From NCBI GenBank assembly GCA_039190745.1, contig JBCCXZ010000001.1, positions 1 to 64,000 on the forward strand: DNA of 64,000 nt, in the 5' to 3' direction. A program made the position numbers and the translations under genes. A model generated the notes under the pieces. It made no database searches. It had not been told where the DNA came from and worked only from the letters and a program-made list of their open reading frames with translations. Numbering within the stretch: the stretch's first letter is position 1; every line of letters begins with the position of its first letter. This document shows, in pieces, positions 25,508 to 32,618 of this stretch. Source of the stretch: Planctomycetota bacterium (lineage in GTDB: Bacteria > Planctomycetota > Planctomycetia > Pirellulales > Lacipirellulaceae).

Positions 25508-27604
25508 ATGGCGATGGACCCCTACGCCCCGTGCCCGTGCGGCAACGGCAAGAAGCTGAAGTTCTGCTGCGCCGACATCGCCGATGACATCGAGAAGGTC
25601 TACAAGAAGATCGAGGGCGACCAGCCCCAGGCGGCGCTCAAGCAGGTTGAGTCGCTGCTCGCCGCGAAGCCAGATCGCTCAGCGCTCATCGACCTGAAGG
25701 CTTCGCTCGAGTTGTCGCTCAAGAAGCTCGACGCGGCCCGCGAGACGATTGTCCGGTTCATGCTCTCGCACCCCGACAGCCCGGCGGCTCAGGCCCAGTC
25801 GGCGATCCTCGAAGCCTCGACCGGGCACGGGCACAAAGGTATCGCGCCGCTGCAGAATGCGCTGGAACTGCTCAGCGACGAGATGCCGCAGCGGGTGCTC
25901 GAAGCGGTCGGAGCCGTGGGGCACGCTTTGCTGCTGGATGGGGACGTCTTCGCGGCCCGCGGGCACTTGCTGCTCTACGCGGGCATCTCGCCGGAGAAAG
26001 ACAACGCGGCGATCGACTTGTTGCTTCGGCTGAACCTCGAGTCGGGGCTGCCGCTGCTGCTGCGGCAGGAGTACTTCCTGAAGCCTGCCCCCGAGGGTTC
26101 TCCTTGGAAGCAAGAGTACGACGAGGCCGCGGTGCTCAGCGGACGCGGGCTCTGGCGCGAGGCCGAGCAGAAGCTCGTCGGGCTTTCTGCCAAGCACCCC
26201 CAGACGCCCGTGTTGATCTACGGACTCGCGTTGGTGCGGGGCTGGCTCGGCGACGCCGCCGGCTTGGCTCAGGGCATGCACGACTTCGCCGGTTTGGGCG
26301 TCCCTCGACAGGAGGCCGTCGAGGCAGAGGCGCTGGCGCAGCTGGTCGACCCGGCGATCGAGGAGCCTTCGTTCAGCATGGTGAAACGCGGTTACAGCGT
26401 GCCGGACGCCGATGTGCTGACCGAGGCGTTGACCGCGGACGCCCGCATCGAACCCTACGACCTAAGCGAGCAAGAAACGGGCGATCAAGCTACGCCTCCG
26501 CGGGCATCTTTCATACTGCTCGACCGCGAGCCGGTAGAACCTGAGACCGAGTTTGGCATCGACGAGGTCCCCAATGTAATCGCGTTCCTGTCTCTTTACG
26601 GCAAACGGACCGATCGCGACGCCCAGTTGGAAGTGACGACCGACGAGGGAGAACTCCTCAAGCGCTCCGCCGCTCTCCTGGCTGAGATCGCTGACAGCGA
26701 GCTGGGCGAGTCCGCCGCCGACGAGGTCTTGGCTGAGAAGTCGCACGCCGAGGGGGCGCTCAGTTGGCGGTGGCGGCTGCCTGAGAGAACGCCCCCGGAT
26801 GTCCGCCAGCGTCTGCTCGCCGAACGGCGTCGGCGGGCGATCTTGTCCGACTGGCCTGCAAGCCCGCTGGGTGCGTTGCGAGGGAAAACGGCCGATGAGG
26901 CGCGGGGGCAGGAGGAATCCTCGATTGCTCTCGAGGCCTGTGTGCTGTTGCTGGAACAGGCGTCGAGCGACCCCGACGAGTTGCCGCTGTTCGATGAGTT
27001 GCGTCAGCAGTTGGGTATTGCGCCCTTGGAGGGTGTTGCCGCGGACGCGGGGGACGAGGCGCCCCTGAGCCGGTTCACGAGGTACGACGCGGCCGGGGCG
27101 AGTTTGGAGCAGTTGCTCTCTGTGCTGCAGCGGGCTTCGCTCGGCGGGGCTTCCGTCGCGGCGTTGTTGGCGGCGCGTGCGTTGGTGGCCCGCTCGAAAG
27201 ACGCCGGTGAGGCGGACCTCTCGGCTGCGTTCCGGCAGGCGATCCGCCTTGAACCCAACCCGAAGCGCGCCCAGGAGCACGCCGCTAGCGCCGTTGCCTG
27301 GTCGGAGGCCCGCGGTCACTCAGCCGGTGAGTGGCGCGTGGCGCTGCTGGAAGTGGCGATCAGCAGCGGCGATGTTGAGCAGTTGGAGCGGACGCTGCAG
27401 GAGATCCGCGAGAAGCACGCCGGCGAGGCGGACGTCGCGGAGGCGGCGTACCGTGTTCTGTTGTCCGCCGGGCTCATCCCGCCTGAACAGGCCGTGCCCG
27501 TTGGGGCGGGCCCCGAGGCGGATCCGAGCGGGGTCTGGACCCCCGGCCAAGAATCGCCCCCCGCCGGAGGGGAAGAGAAGTCCGGGCTCTGGTTGCCGAG
27601 CTGA
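25508..27604 (+). CDS. SEC-C motif-containing, TPR-like protein
   Basis: N-terminal DPYAPCPCGNGKKLKFCC; helical repeats; C-terminal SGLWLP. Confidence 0.8.
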   Translation: MAMDPYAPCPCGNGKKLKFCCADIADDIEKVYKKIEGDQPQAALKQVESLLAAKPDRSALIDLKASLELSLKKLDAARETIVRFMLSHPDSPAAQAQSAILEASTGHGHKGIAPLQNALELLSDEMPQRVLEAVGAVGHALLLDGDVFAARGHLLLYAGISPEKDNAAIDLLLRLNLESGLPLLLRQEYFLKPAPEGSPWKQEYDEAAVLSGRGLWREAEQKLVGLSAKHPQTPVLIYGLALVRGWLGDAAGLAQGMHDFAGLGVPRQEAVEAEALAQLVDPAIEEPSFSMVKRGYSVPDADVLTEALTADARIEPYDLSEQETGDQATPPRASFILLDREPVEPETEFGIDEVPNVIAFLSLYGKRTDRDAQLEVTTDEGELLKRSAALLAEIADSELGESAADEVLAEKSHAEGALSWRWRLPERTPPDVRQRLLAERRRRAILSDWPASPLGALRGKTADEARGQEESSIALEACVLLLEQASSDPDELPLFDELRQQLGIAPLEGVAADAGDEAPLSRFTRYDAAGASLEQLLSVLQRASLGGASVAALLAARALVARSKDAGEADLSAAFRQAIRLEPNPKRAQEHAASAVAWSEARGHSAGEWRVALLEVAISSGDVEQLERTLQEIREKHAGEADVAEAAYRVLLSAGLIPPEQAVPVGAGPEADPSGVWTPGQESPPAGGEEKSGLWLPS

Positions 27605-28719
27605 TGCCTCTGAGCGAATTCGATCGGACGCAGATGCGGCGGGCGGTCGAGCTGGCCCGCCGGGGCGAGGGGTACGTCGAACCCAACCCGATGGTGGGTT
27701 GCGTTCTTGCGCAGGGCGAGACTGTGGTTGCCGAGGGTTGGCACCGGGGCTTTGGGATGCCGCACGCGGAGGCCGAGGCCCTGAACGCGGCCGGCGACAC
27801 GGCCCGGGGAGCAACCGCTTACATCACACTCGAGCCGTGCGCGCACGAAGGCAAGACCCCGCCCTGCGCAAACGCGCTCCTCGCGGCCGGGGTCGGGCGT
27901 GTGGTGATCGGACGGGACGACCCCAACCCACGAGTCGCTGGCGGCGGCGCCGAGCGGCTTGCCGCCGCGGGCCTGCTTGTCGAAGTACTCGACGAATCTG
28001 AGGCCGCTCTGAAGAACGAGTGCTGCCAACTGATCGAGCCGTTCGTCAAACTGGCCACGGCTGGCCGGCCTTGGGTCATCGCGAAGTGGGCCATGACGCT
28101 CGACGGCCGGATCGCGACCCGCACGGGGAGCAGCCAGTGGATCAGCAGTGAAGAATCGAGGGCTTTGGTCCACCGCCTGCGCGGGCGGGTGGACGGAGTC
28201 TTGGCGGGTGCAGGCACTGTCCTGGCGGACGACCCGCTGCTGACGGCCCGCCCTGCTGGCCCGCGCGTTGCAGCGCGGATTGTGCTGGACGACCGCGCGG
28301 AGCTGCCCGTGGACAGCCGACTGGTAGCCACCGCCGGCGAGGCGCCTGTCTTGGCAGTCGTTCAAGACGCAGGGTCTGAAACCGCTCGCGCGCTCGCTGA
28401 CCGCGGCGTGGAGTTGCTGTGCCCCGAGCCCGGGACGAGAGCGAGGCGCCTGGGGGACTTGCTCGACGAGTTGGGCCGTCGCGGGATGACCAACCTGTTG
28501 GTGGAAGGCGGCCCGGGCGTGCTCGGCGGCTTTTTCGACGCCGGGTTGGTCGACGAAGTCTGGGCGTTTGTGGCGCCGAAGGTGGTCGGCGGGTCAGCCG
28601 CGCCGGGGCCTGTCGGAGGCGAAGGCGTGGGCTTGATCGCAGGCGCCTGGGGTCTCGCAGGCTTGGGCTGGGAGCCGGTGGGCGACGACCTGCTCTGCCG
28701 CGGCCGGCTGAGGGGCTAG
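27604..28719 (+). CDS. ribD: Riboflavin biosynthesis deaminase/reductase RibD
   Basis: PNPMVG, HAE, TLEPCAHEGKTPPC, KWAMTLDGRIA, LLVEGG. Confidence 0.97.
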   Translation: MPLSEFDRTQMRRAVELARRGEGYVEPNPMVGCVLAQGETVVAEGWHRGFGMPHAEAEALNAAGDTARGATAYITLEPCAHEGKTPPCANALLAAGVGRVVIGRDDPNPRVAGGGAERLAAAGLLVEVLDESEAALKNECCQLIEPFVKLATAGRPWVIAKWAMTLDGRIATRTGSSQWISSEESRALVHRLRGRVDGVLAGAGTVLADDPLLTARPAGPRVAARIVLDDRAELPVDSRLVATAGEAPVLAVVQDAGSETARALADRGVELLCPEPGTRARRLGDLLDELGRRGMTNLLVEGGPGVLGGFFDAGLVDEVWAFVAPKVVGGSAAPGPVGGEGVGLIAGAWGLAGLGWEPVGDDLLCRGRLRG

Positions 28720-28731
28720 GCTTTTCAGAGG

Positions 28732-29151
28732 TCACTCTCCCCAGAGGGTGGCGATCACGGTGCGCGGACCCGCGTGGTTGCGGTGTTCGCAAAGGTAAAC
28801 GCCCTGCCAGGTTCCCAGCATCAACCGGCCGCTGCCGACCGGGATGTTCAGGCTGCAGCCGATAAAGGCCGCCTTCACGTGGGCCGGCATGTCGTCGGGG
28901 CCCTCACAAGTGTGCCGGTAGGGGAGCGTCTCGGGCACAATCGCAGAGACCGTGGATTCGAGGTCGAGCGGCACGTCTGGGTCGGCGTTCTCGTTGATTG
29001 AAAGCGACGCGCTCGTGTGCTGGAGGAAGAGGTTCAACATTCCGGCCTTTACGCCGGTTAGGTCGGGAACTTCGGAGAGCAGTTCAGTCGTCACAATGTG
29101 GAAGCCCCTCGGCTTGGGCGTGAGGCAGATTACCGACTGCTGGCACGGCAT
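28732..29151 (-). CDS. yjbQ: YjbQ/UPF0047 family protein (secondary thiamine-phosphate synthase)
   Basis: HTSASLSINENADPDV, EGPDDMPAHVK, LGTWQGVYLCEHR. Confidence 0.92.
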   Translation of the reverse strand: MPCQQSVICLTPKPRGFHIVTTELLSEVPDLTGVKAGMLNLFLQHTSASLSINENADPDVPLDLESTVSAIVPETLPYRHTCEGPDDMPAHVKAAFIGCSLNIPVGSGRLMLGTWQGVYLCEHRNHAGPRTVIATLWGE

Positions 29152-29267
29152 AGGATTCTCCTGGCTTGCGCTCTGGCGTGGTATGGAAACGCAGATGTGT
29201 TGACCAAGGACGGCCTTGAACCCGGTAGTCCTGACCGAGTCTGAACAACTTACCTAGCTTGAGGATA

Positions 29268-29294
29268 CGAGAGATTTCTATGCGATATCTCTCG
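29268..29294. promoter_or_regulatory. Inverted repeat CGAGAGAT-N11-ATCTCTCG, candidate operator
   Basis: Perfect 8-bp arms ending 11 nt upstream of a TTGACT -35 box. Confidence 0.45.
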
Positions 29295-29305
29295 ACGGAA
29301 AAAAC

Positions 29306-29335
29306 TTGACTTGCTTCACACGCTGGTAATAATCT
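29306..29335 (+). promoter_or_regulatory. Putative sigma70-type promoter
   Basis: A-tract, TTGACT at 29306-29311, then TGGTAATAATCT; locally AT-rich in a GC-rich genome. Confidence 0.6.
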
Positions 29336-29339
29336 TTTC

Positions 29340-29641
29340 ATTAATCTGCCATTCGGGTCGCTGGCGTGCTAAGTGCAAACGCCGCAAAGACTCCGATAAG
29401 GAGTCCCCGCTGACGATTGTTTCATCCAGCGGGACCAACCCACCCACCTAAGCGACTCGGGCCCTGCAGAAATAGCAGAACGGAGAGCAGGAATCTGACT
29501 CTGTCCTTGGAGGACAGAGAGTCGGTAAGGACACCGTGACGAATCACCGAGGGTAGCCGAGGCGCAGGAACGCCAAGCCGTGCACCCGCCAGCGAGCATC
29601 CGCTTTGCGTCCGCAAGGCGTTACGAGAGAGAAGGTTAAGA
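29340..29641 (+). ncRNA. Candidate structured GGA-rich RNA or long 5' leader (CsrB/RsmZ-like)
   Basis: Multibranch domain 29354-29459 plus hairpins CGGT-AAGGAC-ACCG and GGCG-CAGGAA-CGCC; lies next to csrA. Confidence 0.5.
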
Positions 29642-29872
29642 ATGCCTGACCACAAGCTTAAGAACGTCTTCGAAGCCATCCTGAAGTATGGGCACGACGA
29701 AGACTTTGCTCCCTCGATCGACCGCGGCTTCCGTGCGACGCAGGCCCCCGCGGGTTCGCGTGAGAAGCTCGATGTGCTTGCCGATCGTGTTCGGTCGGGC
29801 TACCCGCTCTGGCACGACGAAGACCGTGCGGATTACACGGGCCTGACGGGCGCCGTCCGCCCGCGCGATTGA
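29642..29872 (+). CDS. Small hypothetical protein (76 aa)
   Basis: ATG after a purine-rich RBS, GC3-rich codons, motif TQAPAGSREKLDVLADRV...PLWHDED; followed by a terminator. Confidence 0.8.
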   Translation: MPDHKLKNVFEAILKYGHDEDFAPSIDRGFRATQAPAGSREKLDVLADRVRSGYPLWHDEDRADYTGLTGAVRPRD

Positions 29873-29957
29873 GCCGCTGCCGCGATTTAGCTCAGGCGAT
29901 TGTGCCTGCCGGCGCCCTGCGGGGTTCGTGGTTTCCGGTAGAGTGACTCCAAAACGC

Positions 29958-29994
29958 AAAAAGGCCGCCCGCTATCCAGCGGGCGGCCTTTTTT
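29958..29994. terminator. Bidirectional rho-independent terminator
   Basis: aaaaaggccgcccgct-atcc-agcgggcggcctttttt between convergent genes. Confidence 0.92.
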
Positions 29995-30068
29995 GGCCTT
30001 TGTGGCTCGCACGCAGCGCGATTAGGTTGGGCCCTCGCCGCCCCGGTCGCGCGTTAGGCTGCGGATGC

Positions 30069-30287
30069 CTAAGCGATTTTCTCGAGTACGCCGGCCGGCT
30101 CTGCGGCGTTTTCGGACGCTGGCGCCGCGAGTGACTCGAAGCTCTCCAACTCATCTCTGAGGACAACAAGGTCTCTGGGCGCCTGGATGCCCAGGCGTAC
30201 TTTGTCGCCCGCGAGGCGGATGACGGTAATGACGATCGAGTCTCCCAGTCTGATTTTCTCTGCTTCTTTTCTGGACAGGACGAGCAC
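30069..30287 (-). CDS. csrA: Carbon storage regulator CsrA/RsmA family protein
   Basis: MLVLSRKEAEKIRLGDSIVITV...KVRLGIQAPRDLVVLRDEL; GTG start with GGAGG SD. Confidence 0.93.
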   Translation of the reverse strand: MLVLSRKEAEKIRLGDSIVITVIRLAGDKVRLGIQAPRDLVVLRDELESFESLAAPASENAAEPAGVLEKIA

Positions 30288-30290
30288 GTG

Positions 30291-30306
30291 AACACCTCCG
30301 TGTGTC
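30291..30306 (-). promoter_or_regulatory. Putative CsrA-binding hairpin occluding the csrA Shine-Dalgarno
   Basis: Minus strand GACAC-ACGGAG-GTGTT, 3 nt before the GTG start. Confidence 0.6.
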
Positions 30307-30323
30307 AGTCGTTCAGTATGATG

Positions 30324-30341
30324 ATCATATGTTCATATGAT
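30324..30341. promoter_or_regulatory. Palindrome ATCATATG-TT-CATATGAT upstream of csrA
   Basis: Perfect 8-bp AT-rich inverted repeat. Confidence 0.5.
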
Positions 30342-30647
30342 AAATGGATCCGTCCGCCTGACAACCTCTTTTGGTAGATTTGCCCCAGACCCCCTCTCGC
30401 CTCGATGACCAAGTGTGGTTTGCTGATCGAGCGATAGGGTTGAATGGGAAGAGTGGGTTGTTTTGGCGTAGTGTAAAGTATCGGCAAGATATGCGGTTTA
30501 CTTCACGCCTGACGCAGAGAAGTGCGGCGGGCAATGAATCGAGAGCGCACTTCGAAGGCTAATTTCACCTGCGGCTCGTTGACGGCTGCAGAAGTTGGCG
30601 GCTGCAGAAGGTAGTCGCTTCGCGTCGGGGCCACGACCTGGAATGGG

Positions 30648-31280
30648 TCAGTCCTTCGGGAAGATCCCGGCGCCGAACTGCTCTCCCCCGTCGAGCGGCG
30701 GGGCGTGGTCGTTGGCGGCCGAGTTATCGATGTGCGGCGGCCGGACGGGCGATCCCTGCGCGTCGTGGGCCCCGGAGCGGCCCTCGCGGTGCGGCGCCTG
30801 GCTGGCGTTCTTGTGCGGCGAATCGAAGCGCTTCTGCTGGTCCGGTTGCCCGGGGTGGTCGTAATCGCCGTCGAAATCGTCGTAGCGTGAGACGTAGCCC
30901 GGCTGCTTCGCTCGCTCGGTCTCCTCGTGGAACTCACGGATGACTTCTTCCTGGATCATCTCCCGGCAGGCGGAGTTGATCGGGTGTGCGATGTCGGCGT
31001 AGAGCTTCGCGCGGCCTTCGCTGTCTACGGGCAACCGGTTGGCGTTTTGGGCGACACCGCATTGGTTGCAGAATTTGGCCCGAAGGTGATTCTTGGTGCC
31101 GCAACGGGGGCAGTGCGAGGTGAGCTTTCGGCTCGGCATCGCCACGAAGGGGCCGTTGCCGCCTTCGATGATCTTGAGGTCGCGGACGACGAAGCAGTTG
31201 TCAAAGGTGATCGAGCAAAAGGCTTTGAGTCTCTCACCGGGCTCTTCCATGAGCTTGATCCTGACTTCGGTGATTCGCAC
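30648..31280 (-). CDS. spoVG: SpoVG family protein with inserted Zn-ribbon
   Basis: [41 protein letters not shown]...[15 protein letters not shown] 31280 after AGGAG. Confidence 0.9.
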
Positions 31281-31312
31281 AGCACTGTCTCCTGGAGCAG
31301 CCTGCCCAGCTG

Positions 31313-32254
31313 CTAACGAGTGGTCGTTACGAACGTGTTGTTGTTGTTTTCCGCTTTCATGATTCCCTCTATCGCTCGCGCGTGTGCGGCGTTCACCGCG
31401 AGGCCTACGCACGCCGAGCCGCTGCCCGTCATCCACTGTCCCACACAGCCGGCCCACGCGAGGCGATCGAGCGTGTCGCCGATGGAACGGACGAGCGCTG
31501 CCGCCGCGCCCTGCAGGCTGTTCACCGTACGCTCGGCGAATGCGCGGAGTCTGCCGGCACGCAGCGCATTGAGCAACCGACGTGTTCGCTCTTCGGCTTC
31601 AATGGGGTCGCCATTGCCGTTCTGCCGGGCCAATTCCGCGAAGGCATCTGCGGTGGGGACGCCCTCGTGTGGTTGGCTAACTACCAAGTGCAGTGCCGGA
31701 AGGCCTCCGATGGCACGCACCCGTTCTCCCCTGCCGGTGCAGACGGCGGGGCTGCCGGCGAGGAAGAAGGGGACGTCGCTTCCCAGGCGAGCCGCCAGTG
31801 TTGCGAGCCGCGGCTTGGTGAATCCCAAACCCCAGGCCTTGTTCAGCAGGAGAAGCGCGGCGGCGGCGTCGCTGCTGCCGCCCCCGAGGCCCGCTTGGGG
31901 CCGGGTGTGTTTCCAGAGGTCGATCCGCCCGTGGGCGACCACCCCGGCGGCGTCCGCCAAGAGACGGGCGGCCCGGGTAACTAAGTTGTCTTCCTCCACG
32001 CCGATCTCAGAAAAACCATCGTGGCAGGCAGCGGGCGGGTGGAGTCGGAATGAAAACTCCTGCTCTCCCCTATCGGTCGCCTTGGGGATCGCGGATACAG
32101 GCGTCCAACGCAAGCGATCACCCCAACTGAGCGGGGCCATCAGAGTGTGGAGCTCGTGAAACCCGTCTTCGCGTTTCCCCAGCACCTGCAGAGAGAGATT
32201 TACTTTTGCCGGGGCAAATCGGGTGAGCGGCTGATCAGAACGGCGAGGTCGCAT
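31313..32254 (-). CDS. ispE: 4-diphosphocytidyl-2-C-methyl-D-erythritol kinase
   Basis: [44 protein letters not shown]. Confidence 0.95.
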
Positions 32255-32618
32255 CAATGGCGCCCAGTTTCTTGGCTGGCCCGGACTTCTGACTTGTCCG
32301 TGTGTTCGGCTTGTTTGCCGGCGTCTCTCCTAAGCTGCTCACCACACGCTGATCGCTCGCTGCACTCGCGTCCGGGTGGTTCGTCGTTCGGGCATTCCGC
32401 GTCAGAAAGCGGCGACCAAAAGCGACGAAAACTCTCTGCCACGCTTGTGTTGCACAATATTGATGGCGTCTAATCTTAGCGCTTCCCTTGAAAAAGGTCA
32501 ACGGAATCTACGCATAGACACGCATCGCGATTGTCGTAACGTCTTGTTCTTGATTGGTGATACGGCTTGCGTGGAGTGAATTACCTACGGGTTACTGTGT
32601 GGAGGGGCAATCTAGGCG

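Follow-up and report, generated by a model that had tools for sequence, protein, structure and literature searches.

The subject of this report is a region (29260-31300) in a stretch of DNA from a Planctomycetota bacterium of the family Lacipirellulaceae (GCA_039190745.1; contig JBCCXZ010000001.1, positions 1 to 64,000, the whole of which is here called the window). In this region a gene for a 76-aa protein, the small open reading frame (ORF), is preceded by roughly 300 nt of non-coding sequence and faces a csrA gene, upstream of which lies spoVG. An earlier note on this DNA took these features to form one self-contained Csr/Rsm regulatory module. Our analysis indicates that the region most likely consists of four separate transcription units rather than one module. 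The ~300 nt would be the 5' untranslated region (UTR), or leader, of a monocistronic small-protein mRNA that extends from a near-consensus promoter to a bidirectional terminator. The single most likely mechanism, which we hold tentatively and with less than even confidence, is that a CsrA-family dimer binds this leader. The dimer would bridge two GGA hairpins and alter the translation or the stability of the mRNA, and the product of the convergent csrA would be the first candidate among eight paralogues. This mechanism is preferred because GGA hairpins recur in the orthologous leaders, the spacing of a conserved GGA pair is fixed and the genome carries eight CsrA genes. The RNA-protein contacts and the direction of regulation are all ones that we infer from the sequence.

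The part of the window from 28800 to 31800 was read directly; its ORFs were listed and a Pfam scan was then run. The features discussed below are collected in Table 1.

Promoter, fold and conserved motifs of the leader

A consensus scan of 28900-31500 gave two promoter-like sites where 0.4 would be expected, one at 29306-29333 (+) in front of the small ORF and the other at 30364-30337 (-) in front of csrA. The first is the promoter that the earlier note had pointed out, a sigma70-like TTGACT-16-AATAAT with an upstream A-tract, and this predicted promoter of near-consensus sigma70 type is the best-conserved non-coding feature of the locus. Of 100 loci, 97 have the pattern AAAAAAC-TTGACTT-N-(G/A)nAATAAT, the set including the window's own locus as well as duplicates between two fetches; the loci without a match are L102, L106 and L107. 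Additionally, AAAMYTTGACW-N14-17-WAATAAT has a single occurrence in the 3.9-Mb genome to which the window belongs, at the small-ORF promoter. Transcription would start at about 29340, a position that we infer from the -10 element only. The inverted repeat just 5' of the promoter, CGAGAGAT-N11-ATCTCTCG, which had been described as operator-like, is present with arms of 8 bp, but these arms are not kept even within the genus: the best arm at the same-genus locus (L011) is 4 bp, and over 77 loci the best inverted-repeat arm averages 4.3 compared with 4.05 in shuffles.

From the putative start to the ATG at 29642 there are ~302 nt, and in the same scan the interval 29333-29642 contained no terminator-like site. 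This sequence is non-coding and strongly paired, as had been claimed: the predicted fold of the 323 nt that begin at 29338 has -115.7 kcal/mol as opposed to -101.8 kcal/mol for shuffled sequences (z -3.0), and 0 of 100 shuffles were as good. Rfam gave no match in the leader, and none of the 3 matches at E<=1 in 28500-32500 falls there. A total of 78 distinct orthologous leaders of at least 100 nt were collected, with 16,273 nt between them and a mean length of 209 nt. Their summed folding energy is below that of shuffles with a z of -6.45, a figure that, like the other shuffle statistics on these leaders, overstates independence, as the leaders are related by descent. The median per-leader folding z is -0.93, and 14% of the leaders are under -2.

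The leader seemed unconserved at first, because a global MAFFT alignment of 20 upstream regions aligned only the promoter and the ribosome-binding site (RBS) with the coding sequence (CDS) and nothing between them beyond the genus; k-mer counts later revealed short motifs. Among the 78 leaders, CCCACC occurs in 43 (6.8 expected), CCACCT in 38 (4.0 expected), GCCGGC in 42 (10.0 expected), TGGAT (UGGAU in the RNA) in 34 (11.7 expected) and GGATTC in 21 (4.5 expected), and the excesses are as high as z 13-15. The CCCACC(U) element has a mean predicted unpaired probability of 0.74, compared with 0.44 for entire leaders, and in only 2 of 46 cases does the mRNA that carries it also contain its complement. 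Judged from these comparisons, the leader evolves fast yet keeps a CCCACCU that is predicted to be single-stranded together with GGA in or beside short predicted hairpins.

GGA was found in predicted hairpin loops more often than expected. In the 78 leaders there are 36 such loop GGA where 15.7 are expected (z 5.7), and a rerun gave 36 versus 15.6 (z 6.3), a 2.3-fold excess that ranks GGA second of the 64 trinucleotides, behind ACC. The controls had no excess: antisense leaders gave 16 versus 29.5 and sequence of equal length from the yjbQ side gave 16 versus 14.3. A.GGA outside the Shine-Dalgarno (SD) window is also enriched (72 versus 47.4, z 3.5), and the GGA hairpins mostly differ between lineages. 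Within the SD window, GGA is present in 60 of 78 leaders compared with 953 of 2929 crude long ORFs of the same genome, the windows compared differing slightly (-21..-2 and -24..-4), and this is what any good SD would give. A CsrA dimer bridges sites that are 10-63 nt apart. Two sites lie within this distance in 24 leaders of the subclade described next (23-31 nt) and also in the window, where 58 nt separate the loop GGAs at -133 and -75.

Many leaders share a common plan. A 5' hairpin, P1, is followed by a helix, P2 (GCCGGCC/GGCCGGC), around one or two copies of single-stranded CCCACCU, then by GAAUUGGAUUCUC with the first conserved GGA (GGA#1) and, ~25 nt on, by UUGGAUG with the second (GGA#2) in a GCGGC-type hairpin. 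A covariance model, R1, was built from 20 leaders that share this plan; RNAalifold on the subclade alignment gave helix P2 alone, and the other helices were set by hand from a scan of column pairs. When run on 100 sources, R1 matched 24 distinct leaders at E<1e-4, in every case at the leader's 5' end and just 5' of the small ORF. Of 41 genus-diverse genomes only 2 gave a match, at one site per genome and likewise 5' of the small ORF. In the resulting 24-row alignment the positions of CCCACCU are kept in 20-24 of 24 rows. The counts for GGA#1 are G23, G19 and A24 and those for GGA#2 are G24, G23 and A22, and GGA#2 reads GGANG in 18 of 24 leaders. The two GGA are 23-31 nt apart (median 25), with GGA#2 a median of 71 nt from the ATG. 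P1 is 91% paired and P2 98% paired, and ten pairs have double changes, a number reached by 0 of 500 shuffles.

A second leader subclade was seen by eye (L031, L034, L037, L038, L052, L058, L072 and L080). Its members have a 5-bp hairpin GGCGA-AUGGA-UCGCC, whose pentaloop follows A/C-N-GGA and also takes the forms CUGGA and CAGGA, and they also carry two copies of CCCACCU and GAGGAUUCUU.

On sequence grounds the window leader is a long (302 nt), divergent version of the family leader. An alignment with its same-genus relative has 4 compensatory pairs of 72, and the three hairpin-type GGA sites of the window leader are kept in that relative. The element at 29476-29497 sits in a 23-nt block (alignment columns 149-171) that is identical in the two, and its GGAAUCU resembles the subclade motif GGAUUCU; its CAGA/UCUG stem is absent from the minimum free energy (MFE) fold of the window and from the same-genus consensus fold. 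The hairpin at 29499-29519 shows one compensatory change relative to L011, from U-A to C-G (pair 179-189), and the 5' arm of the hairpin at 29561-29574 is one base short in L011. A helix closing the 5' end onto the SD, taken from the window MFE, was also considered and was dropped because RBS occlusion is the same as with shuffled upstream sequence.

The csrA paralogue, its linkage and the small protein

The convergent csrA with a GGA in its own SD, as the earlier note had it, was borne out: residues 1-47 match PF02599 at 70.1 bits (cut-off 27) and the SD contains GGAGG. This csrA represents a divergent subfamily, because its scores with the NCBIfam equivalog CsrA models fall below their cut-offs (55 versus 73). 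In 28 csrA orthologues 23 columns are invariant, including M1 L2 V3 L4 S5 R6 K7 ... V42 L43 R44 E46 L47, and the C-terminal tail is variable, often ending ...RSA. The N-terminal strand and the region of R44 are used in RNA binding by the CsrA of E. coli.

The genome has 8 CsrA matches above the cut-off, and five relatives have 5-9 each. The copies in this genome (G000) are on contigs C12, C121, C7 (two, ~2.6 kb apart on opposite strands), C8, C103, C1 and C14; two copies share a score of 93.4 bits and their first 63 residues, and one copy is cut by the start of C103. One FliW is encoded as well (PF02623, 89.8 bits) at the start of contig C78 (C78:16-336). A known type of CsrA antagonist is therefore present in the genome, since a FliW gene exists there. 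It does not lie beside the window csrA, as the sole FliW match is on C78, and this sets the locus apart from the FliW-CsrA switch of Bacillus and Campylobacter, with which it shares the presence of one FliW in the genome.

The region upstream of csrA is itself conserved. Of 59 orthologous csrA upstream regions, 57 contain CA.GGAG and 46 contain ACA.GGAGG, while a crude background of 112 GGAGG-type SDs from the same genome contains 12 and 1, respectively. The SELEX consensus for CsrA is RUACARGGAUGU with the core ACA-N-GGA, and because the csrA SD lies in an ACAnGGAGG that matches this core, the sequence suggests translational autorepression of csrA. The protein would repress its own translation as is known for E. 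coli csrA, where CsrA binds sites over the SD of its own gene. The two cases have the position of the site, here putative, in common. They differ in that a single GGA is all that the short putative UTR shows here, that the local MFE leaves the SD GGA unpaired in just 10 of 59 orthologues, and that the conserved promoter box or palindrome has no E. coli counterpart.

This box, TAyTATACATAAGTACAC, lies over the csrA -10/start region in most orthologues, with a TATACA-like box in 51 of 59. In the window's genus it is replaced at the same place by the perfect 8+8 palindrome ATCATATG-NN-CATATGAT, which has no second site in the genome when up to 2 mismatches are allowed. The box and the SD are also present at 5 of 5 csrA orthologues that are unlinked to the small ORF. 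With its own predicted promoter, a gene-specific box or palindrome and its own SD context, the window csrA is, as far as these elements can be read, autonomous. The box was also considered as a regulon motif and rejected; it has one or two sites per genome, and the site is that of csrA only in G023.

The linkage between the small ORF and csrA is found in part of the loci. A convergent csrA lies less than 1 kb downstream of the small ORF in 55 of 80 named loci and in 41 of the 64 that have at least 3.9 kb of downstream flank, and the median distance from the end of the small ORF to the nearest aligned csrA residue is 226 nt. In the first 20 loci (one per genus, the window's own included) csrA is inside the 1.5-kb flank in 12. 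On the other side, 73 of the 78 loci with sufficient upstream flank have a divergent yjbQ no more than 900 nt 5' of the small ORF. Adjacency of the small ORF and csrA is a trait of part of one family and not a requirement, because csrA is unlinked in all five of the non-adjacent genomes checked. In these genomes the unlinked orthologue is clear, with ~110 bits compared with ~70 for the next match. The proposed synteny of small ORF, csrA and spoVG was only partly upheld. The small ORF has csrA nearby in 41 of 64 loci and spoVG at most 4 kb downstream likewise in 41 of 64, but csrA and spoVG are together in only 2 of 30 loci across the order. To speak of a self-contained module is too strong for a locus whose csrA has seven further paralogues, whose FliW is elsewhere in the genome, whose genes can be unlinked and whose spoVG belongs with ispE.

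The small ORF and the bidirectional terminator behind it, both listed in the earlier note, are present, and the hairpin at 29965-29986 scored as a terminator on both strands in the consensus scan. A strict detector of perfect stems found a terminator-like hairpin in the spacer between small ORF and csrA on the + strand in 28 of 58 loci, on the - strand in 19 of 58 and on both in 17 of 58, the last being a lower bound as this detector misses imperfect stems.

The small protein is, by sequence comparison, a highly conserved orphan in Pirellulales, and its gene is among the most conserved of the neighbourhood. A word-indexed protein search returned 928 homologues, and an exhaustive one with a cut-off of E<=0.001 gave 552 cluster representatives. 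Of 41 relatives, which represent 17 families of the order, 40 have the protein, with 54-97% identity, and most of these genomes also encode a further and more distant paralogue. The protein matches no Pfam or NCBIfam family, and the signature of its own family reads NVFEAILxYGHDEDFxP...APAGSxEKLxxLxxRVxxGxPLWHxxDRxDYxGLxG..PR. The AlphaFold model has two short helices (pLDDT 82.3); in the PDB, Foldseek found no similar structure at E<=0.001, a wide VIA-align search found none at Z>=2 and a profile search of PDB sequences gave 0 matches. A search of the ESM Atlas returned only unnamed Planctomycetota clusters. Additionally, a scan of 19 longer proteins that contain the domain gave 0 Pfam families; these are probably over-extended ORF calls.

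Two smaller observations concern this gene. A 67-aa paralogue in the same genome (G000:C7:15851-16030; L140 3334-3537, -) keeps the core ALPGSxEKLxxLxxRVxxGLPLWHxxDR. It has a similar promoter (TTGACA...TAATACT) and a ~100-nt leader without CCCACCU, and an ORF for a CheY-like receiver lies 586 nt downstream with a 100-aa ORF between. In several orthologues (L017, L021, L023, L026 and L028) codons 3-6 of the small ORF are GAUCCCACCCUG (Asp-Pro-Thr-Leu), which resembles the leader element AUCCCACCUGA; the window reads GACCACAAGCUU there. The likeness may be a coincidence or a relic of duplication.

Candidate mechanisms and known systems

The claim that CsrA controls the small protein is plausible and has some support in the sequence, namely the excess of loop GGA and the regular spacing of the subclade GGA pair. 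Several results weigh against it. The leader had been called GGA-rich, and that description fails as the counts are at chance: the window leader has 8 GGA in 302 nt, or 1 per 38 nt, compared with 6.5 in dinucleotide shuffles, and the 78 leaders minus their last 20 nt have 237 compared with 231.8 expected (z 0.5). The most conserved leader element, CCCACCU, is not a CsrA-type site, and 45 of 78 leaders are without any loop GGA in the MFE. Loop GGA are as frequent where a csrA adjoins (26 in 58 leaders) as where none does (10 in 20), no specific CsrA is assignable among the 8 paralogues, and in 5 of 5 same-family genomes in which the adjacency is missing the csrA orthologue is 23 kb to ~1 Mb away or on another contig. 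The precise R1 architecture is not family-wide: it matches only 2 of 24 other same-family genomes (one per genus) and gave no match to the window's own leader at E<=1. The stems around the subclade GGA motifs are weaker than P1 and P2, being 74% and 70% paired with little covariation. The window RBS, GAGAGAGAAGGUUAAGAAUG, has no GGA, the nearest GGA is 75 nt upstream and there is none in the last 70 nt; a site of the classical repression type over the SD or start was not found in the window leader. Across the family, RBS accessibility is 0.49 compared with 0.48 with shuffled upstream sequence (Wilcoxon p 0.16). The shared descent of the leaders, mentioned above, weighs in the same direction.

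Several of these points support a serious alternative, almost as likely and also held at below an even chance, in which there is no link to CsrA at all. The leader would be read by some other factor (a small RNA, a protein or a ligand) through CCCACCU and the P1/P2 fold, the conserved GGA would have a structural role or form part of the site for that factor, and csrA would be a neighbour only by descent in part of one family. CCCACC(U) is the strongest motif shared by the leaders and is kept in nearly all of the subclade; it is predicted to be largely unpaired and seldom has a partner in its own mRNA. Additionally, the pair of yjbQ and small ORF is more widely kept than the csrA adjacency, the two genes come apart in every non-adjacent genome checked, the total of GGA is at chance and its rate in loops does not depend on the adjacency. 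Binding by CsrA is nonetheless slightly preferred to this alternative: GGA is the second most enriched loop trinucleotide while the controls are flat, the subclade has two near-invariant GGA at a regular spacing with GGANG in most members, and the genome encodes eight CsrA proteins, the usual ligand of which is a GGA motif according to PMC13443453 and PMC4894983. If the CsrA link fails, an ordinary syntenic neighbourhood and an unexplained leader motif remain. The CCCACCU element would, if the CsrA link holds, point to a second trans-acting factor.

The leaders of glgC and hag are CsrA-bound mRNA leaders. By analogy, the anatomy of the small-protein leader appears to resemble this type, to which flaA belongs, and not that of a CsrB/RsmZ sponge. 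Like the flaA-type leaders it is the putative 5' UTR of a coding mRNA with a few GGA in short predicted hairpins, and it has a spacing that a dimer could bridge (in the subclade), a strong predicted promoter and csrA nearby. It differs from them in that the conserved GGA pair is ~70 nt upstream of the start and not over the SD, the window RBS is free of GGA, the product is an orphan 76-aa protein and not flagellin, the CCCACCU element has no counterpart, and the binding of CsrA is here predicted only. In the case of Campylobacter jejuni flaA, the mRNA is described in passages of PMC4894983 as both a target and a titrator of CsrA, with two GGA in adjacent hexaloops. A strongly transcribed small-protein leader could likewise titrate some CsrA. 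The fuller form of this idea is a dual-function mRNA in a Csr circuit specific to planctomycetes, in which the abundant leader with its GGA hairpins is repressed by the neighbouring CsrA and also titrates it, like flaA mRNA but outside any flagellar or FliW context, with the 76-aa protein as the output; we regard it as unlikely. If true, this mRNA would be the first CsrA target or antagonist to be defined in Planctomycetota and CCCACCU would add a second input. CsrA is widespread in Planctomycetota, and as many as 15 copies occur in some bacterial genomes (PMC13443453); a limited search of the literature on CsrA in Planctomycetes/Planctomycetota returned no named target or antagonist from the phylum.

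It is improbable that the leader has no regulatory role and is a fast-drifting spacer in which short motifs are remnants of ancestry. Such a spacer would agree with the global alignment, in which nothing is conserved beyond the genus between promoter and RBS, with the low per-leader folding z and with an RBS accessibility that is no different from that with shuffled upstream sequence. It would not account for a long leader in nearly all loci, for the k-mer excesses, for the compensatory changes in P1 and P2 or for the summed folding energy.

Two further explanations place the connection between the genes outside the leader, and both are very improbable. In the first, the 76-aa protein would be a partner or antagonist of the neighbouring CsrA in the manner of FliW or CesT. 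FliW acts on the tails of CsrA in Bacillus, and the variable tail of this CsrA subfamily, the frequent convergent adjacency and a small protein of no known family or fold would all suit such a role. The small protein is, however, order-wide and far more conserved than the adjacency, the genes were unlinked in each of the non-adjacent genomes checked, a real FliW is encoded in the genome and the two genes have separate predicted promoters on opposite strands. In the second, convergent transcription would couple the genes, with read-through from the strong small-ORF promoter into csrA as antisense, or the reverse, damping one of them. The genes do face each other across a short spacer, and strict bidirectional terminators are found in a minority of the spacers, but that count is a minimum and in the window a strong predicted terminator that scores on both strands separates the genes.

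A classical sponge RNA of the CsrB/RsmY/RsmZ type at 29340-29641, in line with the titrating RNA that the earlier note had proposed, is scarcely credible: a strong, genome-unique promoter, several GGA in window hairpins and the csrA next door would fit it, but GGA is at chance with only two conserved in the subclade, no terminator-like site precedes the ORF, Rfam has no match and what follows directly is a highly conserved ORF that has an RBS of its own. The leader has in common with CsrB, CsrC, RsmY and RsmZ that it is a structured RNA with loop GGA in a CsrA-bearing genome, and it differs in its chance-level GGA content and in that no separate non-coding transcript is predicted; PMC6546359 gives 13-22 GGA-type sites for CsrB or CsrC.

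The locus is a concrete and cheap test case for CsrA, with a short leader, two to four candidate sites and a defined CsrA subfamily adjoining. Cultured relatives with the same arrangement include Lacipirellula limnantheis (L038) and Adhaeretor mobilis (L057). Independently of CsrA, the region holds an orphan small protein whose near-consensus promoter is unique, a hitherto undescribed leader RNA element (P1, P2 enclosing CCCACCU and the GGA pair) and an order-wide form of SpoVG with a zinc ribbon.

The spoVG-ispE operon and other features of the region

A spoVG gene with a zinc ribbon upstream of csrA had been described in the earlier note and is present. Its product matches PF04026 at 94.2 bits (cut-off 29.6). 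The match covers profile positions 2-82 and runs from residue 3 to residue 120, interrupted by ~36 residues with similarity to zinc-ribbon models; DZR gives 27.1 bits, just under its gathering cut-off of 27.3. The zinc ribbon, HCPxCGxKNHLRAxxCNQCG, is kept in 30 of 30 Pirellulales loci (L110-L139). In all 30 of these loci across the order ispE and spoVG are adjacent; the two in which csrA is near spoVG are the window's own and one from another family with csrA inverted. Of 61 genomes of the order, 58 have a spoVG. Judged from these sequences, ispE and the zinc-ribbon spoVG form a separate operon that is conserved across the order and unrelated to the small ORF. The neighbourhood ispE...spoVG occurs in Bacillus too, and the planctomycetal form shares with it the SpoVG domain and the adjacent ispE and differs in the inserted zinc ribbon and the long C-terminal tail. 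A limited literature search found no description of a zinc-ribbon SpoVG.

Table 1. Positions of the genes and of the predicted elements in the region (window coordinates)
Feature	Position	Strand	Remarks
ribD	27604-28719	+	named from reading the ORF translation, without a family scan
yjbQ-like gene (UPF0047)	28732..29151	-	PF01894, 129.5 bits; divergent from the small ORF
perfect 8-bp inverted repeat CGAGAGAT-N11-ATCTCTCG	29268..29294	.	just 5' of the small-ORF promoter; specific to this window
small-protein promoter (predicted): A-tract, -35 TTGACT, 16-nt spacer, -10 AATAAT	29299..29333	+	10/12 consensus matches
putative 5' UTR of the small-protein mRNA, ~302 nt	29340..29641	+	start placed by the -10 element
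CCCACCCACCU, two overlapping copies of the CCCACC(U) element	29439..29449	+	
CAGA[ACGGAGAGCAGGAA]UCUG, 4-bp stem read by eye	29476..29497	+	two GGA in the enclosed 14 nt
hairpin CUCUGUCC-UUGGA-GGACAGAG, GGA at the loop	29499..29519	+	in MFE and centroid folds
hairpin GGCG-CAGGAA-CGCC, GGA in the hexaloop	29561..29574	+	predicted fold
gene for the 76-aa orphan protein	29642..29872	+	signature APAGSxEKLxxLxxRVxxGxPLWHxxDR
bidirectional intrinsic terminator (predicted)	29958..29994	.	A5, 11-bp GC-rich stem, 4-nt loop, T6
csrA paralogue, GTG start	30069..30287	-	PF02599; subfamily MLVLSRKESQRIRLGDSIVITVV...LVLRDELE, variable tail
csrA ribosome-binding region ACACACGGAGGUGUU	30291..30305	-	SD inside ACAnGGAGG
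csrA promoter (predicted) TTGTCA-16-TATCAT	30324..30364	-	consensus scan
perfect palindrome ATCATATG-NN-CATATGAT	30324-30341	-	over the csrA -10/start region
spoVG, with inserted CxxC...CxxC zinc ribbon and long C-terminal tail	30648..31280	-	GTG start at 31280 inferred from the SpoVG N-terminus
ispE-like GHMP kinase gene	31313..32257	-	PF00288 and PF08544; directly upstream of spoVG

Upstream of ribD, the translation of an ORF of 698 aa at 25508-27604 (+) has a Cys-rich motif at its start, which presumably resembles a metal-binding motif of the SEC-C type.

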